Positions 25,362 through 56,922 of a stretch of 64,000 nucleotides of DNA are shown here, in pieces; position 1 is the first letter of the stretch; each line of letters opens with the position of its first letter. Under the pieces are notes generated by a model. The model saw only the letters and a list, made by a program, of their open reading frames with translations, was not told the DNA's origin and did not search any database. The DNA is from Escherichia coli (GTDB lineage: Bacteria > Pseudomonadota > Gammaproteobacteria > Enterobacterales > Enterobacteriaceae), in assembly GCF_030013205.1 (NCBI RefSeq), contig NZ_CP122648.1. One strand, given 5' to 3'. The translations under genes and the position numbers were made by a program.

Positions 25362-26070
25362 TGCACAGAAAACCCCCAGCTAGGCTGGGGGTTCCGGAAA
25401 GCTTTCAGCTTTGAGCCAGTTATTAAAACCCCTTTTGATTTGTTAAAACACCTTGCGGTCTGGCAACTGCAAGTGTCAAACAAGAAATCAAAAGGGGGTC
25501 CCAATGGGGAACGAAAAGAGCTTAGCGCACACCCGATGGAACTGTAAATATCACATAGTTTTTGCGCCAAAATACCGAAGACAGGTGTTCTACAGAGAGA
25601 AGCGTAGAGCAATAGGCAGTATTTTGAGAAAGCTGTGTGAGTGGAAAAGCGTACGGATTCTGGAAGCTGAATGCTGTGCAGATCATATCCATATGCTTGT
25701 GGAGATCCCGCCCAAAATGAGCGTATCCGGGTTTATGGGATATCTGAAAGGGAAAAGCAGTCTGATGCTTTACGAGCAGTTTGGTGATTTGAAATTCAAA
25801 TACAGGAACAGGGAGTTCTGGTGCAGAGGGTACTACGTCGATACAGTGGGTAAGAACACGGCGAAGATACAGGATTACATAAAGCACCAGCTTGAAGAGG
25901 ATAAAATGGGAGAGCAGTTATCGATTCCCTATCCGGGCAGCCCGTTTACGGGCCGTAAGTAACGAAGTTGGATGCAAATGTCAGATCGTGTGCGCCTGTT
26001 AGGGCGCGGCTGGTAAGAGAGCCTTATAGGCGCATTTGAAAAACCTCCGGCTATGCCGGAGGATATTTAT
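25362..26070 (+). mobile_element. IS200-family (IS200/IS605) insertion sequence, ~0.7 kb; boundaries approximate
   Basis: Perfect palindrome cccccagc-tag-gctggggg at 25373..25391, RBS-occluding pairing ccccttttgatt(25429..25440)/aatcaaaagggg(25486..25497), 152-aa Y1/HuH transposase, subterminal hairpin cctccggc-tat-gccggagg at 26044..26062. Confidence 0.8.
25504..25962 (+). CDS. tnpA: IS200 transposase TnpA (HuH Y1 family)
   Basis: 152 aa MGNEKSLAHTRWNCKYHIVFAPKYRR...HIHMLVEIPP (HuH motif)...catalytic Y region; ORF-track upstream extension discarded. Confidence 0.9.
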   Translation: MGNEKSLAHTRWNCKYHIVFAPKYRRQVFYREKRRAIGSILRKLCEWKSVRILEAECCADHIHMLVEIPPKMSVSGFMGYLKGKSSLMLYEQFGDLKFKYRNREFWCRGYYVDTVGKNTAKIQDYIKHQLEEDKMGEQLSIPYPGSPFTGRK

Positions 26071-42108: not shown

Positions 42109-42146
42109 ACAAAATCCCAGATGCGCCCCTAAAAAGCGCACGGAGC

Positions 42147-42187
42147 GTCCCCTCGCCCCTCTGGGGAGAGGGTTAGGGTGAGGGGAA
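42147..42187. repeat. GC-rich palindromic intergenic repeat (copy 1), box-C-like
   Basis: gtcccctcgcccctctggggagagggttagggtgaggggaaca; near-identical copy at 55540..55582. Confidence 0.7.
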
Positions 42188-42210
42188 CATACAGCATCCG
42201 GCGATCACCA

Positions 42211-51693: not shown

Positions 51694-51799
51694 TCACCCT
51701 GTGTGACGTCGATTCGGGCGTCACGCTCTCTCCTTTTTCATTTTACCTTCTGCGGAGGGTAGGGGGAGCTTTTACCTGAAATACGCCACGGAGGCGGGT

Positions 51800-53512: not shown

Positions 53513-54349
53513 ATGGCGCACGACGAACAATGGCTCACCCCACGTCTGCACATAGCAGCAACGCTGTGTAACCAGACGCCTGCCGCGACGGAATCTCCGC
53601 TGTGGCTGGGGGTGGATCTGGGCACCTGCGATGTGGTGTCGATGGTTGTTGACCGCGACGGTCAGCCGGTGGCGGTATGCCTCGACTGGGCTGATGTGGT
53701 CCGCGACGGCATCGTCTGGGATTTCTTCGGTGCGGTCACCATTGTTCGTCGCCATCTCGACACCCTCGAGCAGCAATTCGGTCGCCGTTTTAGCCATGCG
53801 GCGACCTCTTTTCCTCCAGGTACGGACCCGCGTATTTCCATCAACGTGCTGGAGTCTGCCGGACTGGAAGTGAGTCATGTGCTGGATGAGCCAACCGCAG
53901 TCGCGGATCTGCTGCAACTGGACAACGCCGGTGTAGTGGATATCGGCGGTGGCACTACTGGTATTGCCATCGTGAAAAAGGGCAAGGTGACTTACTCGGC
54001 AGATGAAGCCACCGGCGGACATCATATCTCTCTGACTCTCGCCGGAAATCGCCGTATTTCGCTGGAAGAGGCAGAGCAGTACAAACGCGGTCACGGTGAC
54101 GAGATTTGGCCTGCGGTGAAACCGGTGTACGAAAAAATGGCGGACATTGTCGCCCGGCATATTGAAGGGCAGGGCATTACTGATTTATGGCTGGCGGGCG
54201 GCTCTTGTATGCAACCGGGCGTGGCGGAACTGTTTCGCAAACAATTCCCGGCGTTACAGGTGCATCTACCGCAGCACAGTTTGTTTATGACCCCGCTGGC
54301 GATCGCCAGTAGCGGGCGAGAGAAAGCGGAGGGGATCTATGCAAAATGA
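53513..54349 (+). CDS. eutJ: chaperone-like (actin/Hsp70 fold) protein EutJ
   Basis: 278 aa. Confidence 0.9.
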   Translation: MAHDEQWLTPRLHIAATLCNQTPAATESPLWLGVDLGTCDVVSMVVDRDGQPVAVCLDWADVVRDGIVWDFFGAVTIVRRHLDTLEQQFGRRFSHAATSFPPGTDPRISINVLESAGLEVSHVLDEPTAVADLLQLDNAGVVDIGGGTTGIAIVKKGKVTYSADEATGGHHISLTLAGNRRISLEEAEQYKRGHGDEIWPAVKPVYEKMADIVARHIEGQGITDLWLAGGSCMQPGVAELFRKQFPALQVHLPQHSLFMTPLAIASSGREKAEGIYAK

Positions 54350-55526
54350 ATTGCAGACCGCGCTCTTTCAGGCGTTCGATACCCTGAATCTGCAACGGGT
54401 AAAAACATTTAGCGTTCCACCGGTGACGCTTTGCGGTCCGGGCGCGGTGAGCAGTTGCGGACAGCAAGCGCAAACGCGTGGGCTGAAACATCTGTTCGTG
54501 ATGGCAGATAGCTTTTTGCATCAGGCAGGGATGACCGCCGGGCTGACGCGTAGCCTGGCCGTTAAAGGTATCGCCATGACGCTCTGGCCATGTCCGGTGG
54601 GCGAACCATGCATCACCGACGTGTGTGCAGCCGTGGCGCAGTTGCGTGAATCAGGCTGTGACGGGGTGATTGCGTTTGGCGGCGGCTCGGTGCTGGATGC
54701 AGCAAAAGCCGTGGCGTTGCTGGTGACGAACCCGGATAGCACGCTGGCAGAGATGTCAGAAACCAGCGTTCTGCAACCGCGCCTGCCGTTGATTGCCATT
54801 CCAACTACCGCCGGAACCGGTTCTGAAACCACCAACGTAACGGTGATTATCGACGCGGTGAGCGGGCGCAAGCAGGTGTTAGCCCACGCCTCGCTGATGC
54901 CGGATGTGGCGATTCTCGACGCTGCGCTGACCGAAGGCGTGCCGTCGCATGTCACGGCGATGACCGGTATCGACGCGTTAACCCATGCTATTGAAGCGTA
55001 CAGCGCGCTGAACGCCACACCGTTTACCGACAGTCTGGCGATTGGTGCCATTGCGATGATTGGCAAATCGCTGCCGAAAGCGGTGGGCTACGGTCACGAC
55101 CTTGCCGCCCGCGAGAGCATGTTGCTGGCTTCATGTATGGCGGGAATGGCGTTTTCCAGTGCGGGGCTTGGGTTGTGCCACGCGATGGCGCATCAGCCAG
55201 GGGCGGCGCTGCATATTCCGCACGGTCTGGCGAACGCCATGTTGCTGCCAACGGTGATGGAATTTAACCGGATGGTTTGTCGTGATCGGTTTAGTCAGAT
55301 TGGTCGGGCACTGCGAACTAAAAAATCCGACGATCGTGACGCTATTAACGCGGTAAGTGAGCTGATTGCGGAAGTCGGGATTGGTAAACGACTGGGCGAT
55401 GTTGGTGCAACATCTGCGCATTACGGCGCATGGGCGCAGGCCGCGCTGGAAGATATTTGTCTGCGCAGCAACCCGCGTACCGCCAGCCTGGAGCAGATTG
55501 TCGGCTTGTACGCAGCGGCGCAATAA
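54339..55526 (+). CDS. eutG: iron-containing alcohol dehydrogenase EutG
   Basis: 395 aa Fe-ADH family. Confidence 0.92.
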   Translation: MQNELQTALFQAFDTLNLQRVKTFSVPPVTLCGPGAVSSCGQQAQTRGLKHLFVMADSFLHQAGMTAGLTRSLAVKGIAMTLWPCPVGEPCITDVCAAVAQLRESGCDGVIAFGGGSVLDAAKAVALLVTNPDSTLAEMSETSVLQPRLPLIAIPTTAGTGSETTNVTVIIDAVSGRKQVLAHASLMPDVAILDAALTEGVPSHVTAMTGIDALTHAIEAYSALNATPFTDSLAIGAIAMIGKSLPKAVGYGHDLAARESMLLASCMAGMAFSSAGLGLCHAMAHQPGAALHIPHGLANAMLLPTVMEFNRMVCRDRFSQIGRALRTKKSDDRDAINAVSELIAEVGIGKRLGDVGATSAHYGAWAQAALEDICLRSNPRTASLEQIVGLYAAAQ

Positions 55527-55539
55527 AAGTGTACGGACA

Positions 55540-55650
55540 GTCCCCTCGCCCCTTTGGGGAGAGGGTTAGGGTGAGGGGAACAGAGTCGCGCCGGTGCAAA
55601 CAATTACCCTCACCCCGGCCCCTCGGCTTCCAGAGTGAGGGAAAAACCCA
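55540..55650. repeat. GC-rich palindromic repeat (copy 2) plus inverted partial copy, in the eutG-eutH spacer
   Basis: gtcccctcgcccctttggggagagggttagggtgaggggaaca (1 mismatch to copy 1) then ...ttaccctcaccccggcccctcggcttccagagtgagggaaaaaccc. Confidence 0.7.
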
Positions 55651-55695
55651 CTTTCAGCATTGGCAATAAATAACAACTAACAGGGAGTAAAGGCG

Positions 55696-56922
55696 ATGGG
55701 AATTAACGAAATCATCATGTACATCATGATGTTCTTTATGCTGATAGCTGCCGTAGACAGGATCCTGTCGCAGTTCGGCGGTTCTGCTCGTTTCCTCGGT
55801 AAGTTCGGTAAAAGTATCGAAGGATCCGGCGGTCAGTTCGAAGAAGGCTTTATGGCAATGGGCGCACTGGGCCTGGCGATGGTCGGTATGACCGCGCTGG
55901 CACCGGTACTGGCCCACGTACTCGGACCGGTGATTATCCCGGTTTACGAAATGCTCGGCGCAAACCCGTCAATGTTCGCCGGAACACTGCTGGCGTGCGA
56001 TATGGGCGGCTTCTTCCTCGCCAAAGAGCTGGCGGGCGGCGACGTAGCAGCGTGGCTATACTCTGGGTTAATTCTCGGGTCGATGATGGGGCCAACGATT
56101 GTGTTTTCCATTCCGGTGGCGCTCGGCATTATCGAACCTTCTGACCGTCGTTATCTGGCGCTCGGCGTGCTGGCGGGCATTGTGACCATTCCGATTGGCT
56201 GTATTGCCGGTGGTCTGGTGGCTATGTATTCCGGTGTGCAGATCAACGGTCAGCCAGTGGAATTCACCTTTGCCCTGATCCTGATGAACATGATCCCGGT
56301 ACTTATCGTCGCGGTACTGGTGGCGCTGGGGCTGAAATTCATCCCGGAAAAAATGATCAACGGCTTCCAGATCTTCGCCAAATTCCTCGTTGCATTGATC
56401 ACCCTCGGTCTTGCCGCTGCGGTAGTGAAATTCCTGCTCGGTTGGGAACTGATCCCCGGTCTGGATCCGATCTTCATGGCTCCAGGCGACAAACCCGGTG
56501 AAGTGATGCGCGCCATTGAAGTTATCGGTTCTATCTCCTGTGTTCTGTTAGGGGCGTACCCGATGGTATTGCTGCTGACCCGCTGGTTTGAAAAACCGCT
56601 GATGAGCGTCGGTAAAGTGCTGAATATGAACAATATCGCGGCAGCTGGCATGGTGGCAACGCTTGCCAACAACATCCCAATGTTTGGCATGATGAAGCAG
56701 ATGGATACCCGCGGCAAAGTCATCAACTGCGCCTTCGCCGTTTCCGCTGCTTTCGCCCTGGGTGACCACTTAGGCTTCGCCGCTGCCAACATGAACGCCA
56801 TGATTTTCCCGATGATTGTCGGCAAGTTGATCGGCGGCGTAACGGCGATTGGCGTGGCGATGATGCTGGTGCCAAAAGAAGACGCGACCGCGGCCAAAAC
56901 CGAAGCGGAGGCACAATCGTGA
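55696..56922 (+). CDS. eutH: ethanolamine permease EutH
   Basis: 408 aa polytopic membrane protein. Confidence 0.92.
   Translation: MGINEIIMYIMMFFMLIAAVDRILSQFGGSARFLGKFGKSIEGSGGQFEEGFMAMGALGLAMVGMTALAPVLAHVLGPVIIPVYEMLGANPSMFAGTLLACDMGGFFLAKELAGGDVAAWLYSGLILGSMMGPTIVFSIPVALGIIEPSDRRYLALGVLAGIVTIPIGCIAGGLVAMYSGVQINGQPVEFTFALILMNMIPVLIVAVLVALGLKFIPEKMINGFQIFAKFLVALITLGLAAAVVKFLLGWELIPGLDPIFMAPGDKPGEVMRAIEVIGSISCVLLGAYPMVLLLTRWFEKPLMSVGKVLNMNNIAAAGMVATLANNIPMFGMMKQMDTRGKVINCAFAVSAAFALGDHLGFAAANMNAMIFPMIVGKLIGGVTAIGVAMMLVPKEDATAAKTEAEAQS

Follow-up and report, generated by a model that had tools for sequence, protein, structure and literature searches.

What is the GC-rich palindromic repeat that fills the spacer between eutG and eutH in Escherichia coli, and does it do anything for the operon in which it sits? 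The question arises in the 64,000-nt stretch of DNA analysed here (the window), which carries a complete eut operon, eutS through eutR. Gene ends from the ORF list, 55526 for eutG and 55696 for eutH, leave a spacer of 169 nt (55527-55695), just as a sequence-only reading of the window had described it. That reading had also noticed a 43-nt repeat recurring 13 kb away with one mismatch, and the repeat is real: by pattern match, GTCCCCTCGCCCCT[C/T]TGGGGAGAGGGTTAGGGTGAGGGGAACA occurs twice, at 42147-42189 and 55540-55582, with a one-base difference, and 100 dinucleotide-preserving shuffles of the window gave 0 matches. For the copy outside eut, the start that had been given (42147) holds and the end (42187) was two bases short of the correct 42189; its placement in the ypfG-tktB spacer is right, and the flanking genes are convergent. 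The inverted partial copy said to follow the eut repeat exists as well, since 55607-55641 is its reverse-strand partner, though decayed, and the arms at 55569-55580 and 55604-55615 are 92% complementary. Further short direct and inverted repeats also join the two halves of the spacer. Both loci, eutG-eutH and ypfG-tktB, are 100% identical to those of E. coli strain CFSAN018748, and RefSeq annotates no repeat features at the identical eut locus (NZ_CP028192.1) or in the K-12 region. Small ORFs overlapping the spacer (e.g., 55430-55669) are out of frame with eutG and lie in repeat sequence, and were dismissed.

Judged by its sequence, the eut spacer repeat is BoxC, a known dispersed non-coding family of E. 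coli with roughly 15-30 copies per genome. The motif was first described as BoxC, found again as the PIT element (Hoyne and Maher) and named TMECO by Holder et al. 2015 (PMC4666352), in a literature that includes Bergler 1992, Bachellier in the 1990s and Hoyne and Maher 2000, 2002; Petrillo et al. 2008 (PMC2267715) list it as an E. coli family of 50-56 bp and 22-32 copies. The TMECO consensus, CCCTCNCCC-N3-6-GGGNGAGGG-N3-GGGNGAGGG (PMC4666352), is matched exactly at 55543-55577 and at 42150-42184. Moreover, the eut core is identical to K-12 TMECO nos. 7, 11 and 15 and the ypfG-tktB core to nos. 9, 16, 19 and 22 (Table 1, PMC4666352), and all seven entries are, like the eut core with its TTA loop, type A with one mismatched triplet. 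The box-C class, which the sequence-only reading had offered as a guess, was thus the right one. Had the two copies been the only ones in the genome, this would, by its own account, have counted against that reading; a sensitive search with a 57-nt unit over 5,426 complete E. coli genomes instead found a median of 15 BoxC places per genome (range 1-29), with BoxC present in 5,425/5,426. At the gathering threshold, Rfam 15 gave nothing at the eut spacer, and a permissive scan returned chance matches only (E = 0.24-0.49); the supplements of PMC4666352 name neither the eut nor the tktB locus, either of which may still be among its 63 catalogued TMECO loci. Elsewhere in the window, Rfam matched STnc490, an Hfq-binding sRNA, at 25371-25494 (+) with 146 bits against a gathering score of 56, over the full model length.

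An important aspect of the eut copy is its architecture. Five K-12 loci carry type A and type B units in inverted orientation (PMC4666352), and the eut element aligns colinearly, over its full length, with four K-12 pairs of this kind: left extension (AAAAGTGYWCGGWCAG), type A unit, 28-nt linker, inverted type B unit and GAAAA tail follow one another in the same order. Because this colinearity includes the left extension, linker and tail, we read the spacer, from the alignments, as a single composite of ~120 bp, a BoxC element whose partner arm has decayed, and not as loose palindromes. The left extension aligns with 9 K-12 copies, and an alignment with six single-copy K-12 loci, which gives a family unit of ~61 bp, finds it in both window copies. 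Membership among the inverted pairs comes with a qualification, in that the order of parts is shared with the four K-12 pairs, yet the type B unit lies outside the family consensus, which it does not match even with four substitutions allowed; we thus describe the element as a decayed pair. The parts are collected in the table below. As a separate observation, the linker segment at 55583-55598 (AGTCGCGCCGGTGCAA) is closer to the inter-unit linker of BIME-2 (AGTGGCGCGGTGCAA) than the linkers of K-12 BoxC pairs are, a likeness that could be chance or the trace of a hybrid origin.

Table. Features of the eutG-eutH spacer, its flanks and the second BoxC copy, in window coordinates.
Feature	Position	Strand	Details and basis
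eutG coding sequence (context)	54339..55526	+	stop TAA 55524-55526; ORF list and RefSeq annotation NZ_CP028192.1
Left 8-nt direct repeat GCAATAAA	55520..55527	+	includes the eutG stop; 100% identical to 55663-55670
BoxC unit left extension AAAGTGTACGGACA	55526..55539	+	moderate conservation in the family; K-12 pair and single-copy alignments
43-mer	55540..55582	+	pattern match; holds the BoxC/TMECO type A 'mm' core 55543-55578
Type A core arms	55543-55578	+	pyrimidine CCCTCGCCCC, central purine GGGGAGAGGG, TTA loop, third GGGTGAGGGG
Composite linker AACAGAGTCGCGCCGGTGCAAACAATTA, 28 nt	55579..55606	+	colinear with K-12 A+B linkers, consensus AACAGGCCRGCACTGGTGCGAAWAWTTA
Decayed inverted type B unit	55607..55641	-	aligned with K-12 pairs; pairs with 55569-55580; outer arm CCCTCACCCC and CCG-type loop retained, inner hairpin disrupted
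GCTTCC in the decayed B arm	55626..55631	+	predicted pairing with the eutH Shine-Dalgarno in mRNA
Composite tail AAAAACCCACTTT, then CAGCATTG	55642..55662	+	BoxC-versus-BIME allele alignment
Right 8-nt direct repeat GCAATAAA	55663..55670	+	repeat search
Conserved minimal spacer ATAACAACTAACAGGGAGTAAAGGCG	55670..55695	+	eutH Shine-Dalgarno GGGAGT at 55683-55688
eutH coding sequence (context)	55696..56922	+	ORF list and RefSeq annotation
Second BoxC copy	42129..42189	+	single type A unit with left extension, core 42150-42185, between convergent ypfG/tktB

The BoxC spacer turns out to be a minority allele. It is found in 305/5,426 complete E. coli genomes, a frequency of about 6% that mirrors the sampling of RefSeq complete genomes, and an independent query made only of the linker and B arm recovered the same 305 genomes at >=95% identity. 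Among the 5,426 genomes, that query detected no extant donor copy, the best paralogue being ~80% identical. All other sampled E. coli genomes (~94%) carry a REP/BIME-2 element in the same place, built from 100-bp tandem units in 1, 2, 3, 5 or 6 (or more) copies, with spacers of 116 to 616 nt; O157:H7 has a partly deleted BIME form of 99 nt. The GTDB representative of E. coli, for instance, has a spacer of 578 nt, and Escherichia sp. MOD1-EC7003 one of 474 nt. Common to every E. coli allele is the 26-nt stretch next to eutH, which includes the Shine-Dalgarno. What the sequence-only reading missed is precisely this minority status and the replacement of a BIME array by the BoxC allele.

Beyond the species, a degenerate eutH-start pattern located 33 loci among species representatives, and with the conserved C-terminus of EutG as anchor the spacer was readable in 31 of them. 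BoxC was present in 0/31 of these spacers. REP-type words occurred in 23/31, another GC-rich palindrome in 1, and the remaining 7 were minimal spacers of 27-32 nt. The carriers of REP-type words include E. whittamii, two Escherichia sp., Citrobacter, Salmonella diarizonae, Klebsiella and Pseudocitrobacter, with palindromes that are genus-specific; Salmonella, whose spacer had been singled out for comparison, has a single REP and not BoxC. In a MAG labelled Citrobacter sp. HRGM_Genome_0066, the eutG end and the 116-nt spacer resemble no Citrobacter and are identical to those of the common BIME allele of E. coli; its contig is probably mis-binned E. coli.

These distributions suggest a direction of change. 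Given that BIME occupies the spacer in the outgroups E. whittamii, Escherichia sp. E1V33 and MOD1-EC7003, REP/BIME is the ancestral state in Escherichia, and BoxC a derived allele that replaced it within E. coli. Furthermore, three strains that differ from one another at several sites in the eutG flank share exactly the same BoxC spacer, which indicates a single origin of the allele. From the outgroups, together with a weak possible REP remnant, we infer that the BoxC allele arose once inside E. coli by displacing BIME; the putative remnant is CAGCATTG, which agrees at 6/8 bases with GCATCCGC, the 3' REP end in BIME alleles, and the likeness is a weak one. No allele intermediate between BIME and BoxC was found among the genomes searched. 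On either side of the BoxC insert stands a copy of the 8-nt direct repeat GCAATAAA (55520-55527 / 55663-55670); the bracket of BIME alleles is CAATAAAT. Taking away the insert together with one repeat copy leaves a 26-nt spacer that closely matches the minimal spacer of Citrobacter, and the slot therefore lies two bases past the eutG stop codon. The minimal spacer (55670..55695) is itself identical in BoxC and BIME alleles and matches the whole 27-nt spacer of several Citrobacter species. The bracket could be a target-site duplication or chance, with ~0.3 such repeats expected per 200 nt by our estimate.

Does BoxC alternate with REP more generally? The ypfG-tktB BoxC allele is also in the minority (832/5,426 genomes), and K-12 has REP instead of BoxC at that place. 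Insertions of boxC at polymorphic BIME loci were reportedly described by Bachellier et al. in 1997 (Genetics 145:551). On the other hand, two loci at which K-12 carries BoxC show that such alternation is not universal: strains without the K-12 form have a collapsed hairpin or unrelated sequence at alx-sstT, and at ygfF-gcvP they have lost the whole left region. Two of the alx-sstT alleles can be described more closely. In E. coli 258E, ~400 nt of unrelated sequence with a GC-rich palindrome (GGGGGTGCAGGGGGCGGCGGCGATTGGCCGCCCCCTGCGC) replaces the K-12 BoxC pair, and in E. coli TL20 the A+B pair has collapsed to a single hairpin by deletion between two CCCTCTCCC arms, a type of collapse that fits the 'palindrome effect' of PMC4666352.

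One could go further and propose that BoxC spreads by targeting, or recombining into, sites occupied by REP/BIME. K-12 has REP where the two window copies lie; the copy in eut took the place of an ancestral BIME, kept the same 8-nt bracket and possibly a REP 3' remnant, and has a linker that resembles that of BIME-2. We regard such targeting as a long shot. If true, it would make BoxC a second family using the REP insertion machinery or REP-induced breaks, and the post-eutG slot a natural experiment in which unrelated palindromes functionally substitute for one another.

The first alternative to a passive repeat is an action of the element as DNA. Here the type A core, when single-stranded, would fold into an intrastrand triplex of the purine motif, stall replication or repair and create a rearrangement hotspot, and the presence of the element would be a by-product or a cause of local instability rather than a matter of RNA function. 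The same core does give a stable triplex in vitro as single-stranded DNA (PMC4666352; CD and NMR), and variation among strains is greater at BoxC loci than in the intergenic regions taken as controls (PMC4666352). Polymorphism is high in the eutG-eutH spacer, and the existence of a collapsed-hairpin allele of a K-12 BoxC pair in other strains offers a form of erosion that the decay of the B arm here would fit. However, the triplex went undetected by in vivo DMS footprinting and did not form in double-stranded DNA (PMC4666352). Most of the polymorphism at the slot is a change in BIME-2 copy number, for which BoxC is not needed, while the BoxC allele is invariant across backgrounds, unlike a locally unstable sequence. 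We therefore consider this explanation unlikely, although it retains some appeal.

The second alternative is the one from which the sequence-only reading started: a functional RNA element inside the operon, either an mRNA stabiliser or a partial terminator, which would fix the stoichiometry of eutS...eutG relative to eutHABCLKR. An extended stable stem-loop had been predicted, and folding agrees, since the composite (55540-55650) reaches -49.8 kcal/mol, directly after eutG; the 43-mer region gives a hairpin of -23.7 kcal/mol. The energy of the composite is only modestly beyond composition-matched shuffles (z = -2.4), and the whole spacer, at -57.2 kcal/mol, stays within what its composition would give (z = -1.26); for the BIME allele with one unit the values are -47.5 kcal/mol and z = -3.6. 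With energies so similar, the replacement swapped one strong stem-loop for another. That two unrelated E. coli families supply stem-loops of such similar energy could reflect selection for structure, as could be argued from the slot at large, which nearly always holds a strong palindrome (24/31 enterobacterial spacers are structured). REP/BIME elements, moreover, are reported as mRNA stabilisers and attenuators (PMC2267715), and REP/BIME is what most strains carry at eutG-eutH.

Against this stands a series of observations. A promoter and terminator scan of 55527-55695 yielded no hairpin-plus-T-run and no sigma-70-like site; the nearest terminator-scan matches lie inside eutH (55713-55731), and the composite is followed by AAAAACCCAC. 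With neither a hairpin-plus-U-tract nor a promoter in the spacer, the proposed role as stabiliser, partial terminator or setter of stoichiometry found no support. Published tests of PIT elements for promoter activity, terminator activity and an effect on RNA polymerase were all negative, as far as the summary in PMC4666352 goes. Seven species manage with an unstructured spacer of 27-32 nt, and the variation in BIME copy number between strains, 1 to 6 or more, speaks against finely adjusted dosage control. A better candidate for an attenuator is at hand within the same operon: the eutM-eutN spacer (51701-51745, +), the only other sizeable one, contains a terminator-like hairpin of 10 pairs (6 G-C) with a T-rich tail. 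Because it lies directly after the shell gene eutM, this hairpin is the more plausible intra-operon attenuator of the two. Taken together, we find a dedicated regulatory role for the eutG-eutH element distinctly improbable.

Translation deserves a separate comment, in that the two kinds of allele might differ there. According to PMC12306157, in its account of Liang et al. 2015, REPs reduce translation of the gene before them only if the distance to the stop codon of that gene is <16 nt. BIME starts 1-2 nt after the eutG stop and the first BoxC stem 14-16 nt after it, and by this rule the BoxC allele is predicted to relieve the stop-proximal down-regulation of eutG by REP; a distance of 14-16 nt sits exactly at the 16-nt threshold, and the rule was established for REPs, not BoxC. 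At the other end of the spacer, partition-function folding pairs the eutH Shine-Dalgarno (55683-55688) with GCUUCC (55626-55631) with a probability of 0.86-0.89, and its mean unpaired probability is 0.06 in the BoxC allele versus 0.43-0.54 in four BIME alleles. The pairing is stable across flank lengths and is lost when a consensus B arm is substituted; compared with shuffled inserts, however, the occlusion is not significant, with 9% doing as well. In these models the decayed B arm may thus occlude the eutH Shine-Dalgarno in an allele-specific way, which we take only as a lead.

How does the element compare with known repeat systems? It shares with BoxC/PIT/TMECO not only its core and, in decayed form, the inverted type B unit beyond a linker of ~28 nt but also its intergenic position, its multiple copies and its strain-dependent presence. 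It differs from the K-12 set in that K-12 has no BoxC at eutG-eutH, in a B partner decayed beyond the consensus, and in its place on the coding strand of a long operon. A BoxC within an operon is also present in K-12, in the pstA-pstB spacer. That copy, no. 19, sits in the pstSCAB-phoU operon (spacer 3908367-3908548), antisense to the operon. An intra-operon BoxC is thus not new in kind, the family is a known one, and strain-to-strain presence and absence of BoxC has been published before, with 63 loci documented across 56 strains (PMC4666352).

With REP/BIME-2 the element has in common the identical post-eutG slot, GC-rich palindromes, a similar folding energy, strain variation and the same short bracket. 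The two sequence families are unrelated, however, and BIME-2 amplifies in tandem whereas the eut BoxC is a single composite. The roles documented for REP (stabiliser, attenuator, gyrase/IHF binding sites, stop-proximal down-regulator of translation) have none documented for BoxC beside them, and REPs have an associated transposase, RAYT/TnpA_REP (Ton-Hoang 2012, PMC3333891; also Gilson, Bachellier, Hofnung). The REP palindrome GCCGGATG...CATCCGGC, with its GTAG/CTAC end, is absent from the window spacer and present in the alternative alleles and in K-12 tktB-ypfG. That the eut repeat is itself a REP/BIME variant and not a separate family, as its sharing of a position with the REP/BIME of other strains at both loci and the resemblance between AGTCGCGCCGGTGCAA and AGTGGCGCGGTGCAA might suggest, is refuted by the sequence comparison and has practically no chance of being right, given the lack of REP words, arms that are homopurine/homopyrimidine instead of the REP type, an exact match to the BoxC consensus and an alignment with BoxC pairs throughout. 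Finally, the element resembles MITEs of the ERIC/IRU type as a short non-coding imperfect palindrome of ~120 bp that lies within mRNAs, here with an 8-nt direct repeat. It departs from them in that the other BoxC copies examined lack an obvious flanking duplication and the BIME allele has the same bracket as BoxC. To our knowledge, BoxC has neither a cognate transposase nor a consistent target-site duplication.

The account that we favour is accordingly that of a composite BoxC element in a recurrent post-eutG slot, a derived allele of single origin whose action is most likely passive, and we hold this account as a whole with considerable confidence. As for what such an element would do, it would be transcribed within the eut polycistronic mRNA and fold into stem-loops totalling about -50 kcal/mol; since these come without a U-tract, transcription would not be terminated by them. 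At most, the element would do what its REP/BIME predecessor did and form a structured barrier past the end of eutG. As single-stranded DNA in vitro, its type A core is also able to form an intrastrand triplex, a property that has been linked with local instability of BoxC loci. Most likely, then, it is a passive and possibly selfish repeat, which may show the 3' barrier behaviour of the REP type.

What the analysis mainly settles is how the repeat is to be classed, namely as BoxC, a family described in the 1990s and revisited between 2000 and 2015. Beyond the name, the eutG-eutH junction emerges as a place where palindromic repeats have landed time and again in enterobacteria, in a long metabolic operon that is involved in gut colonisation. 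Its natural alleles (BoxC, BIME x1 to x6 or more, and a partial deletion) are usable for testing the effects of such repeats on eut expression, and the same alleles could show whether BoxC has any activity at the level of RNA.
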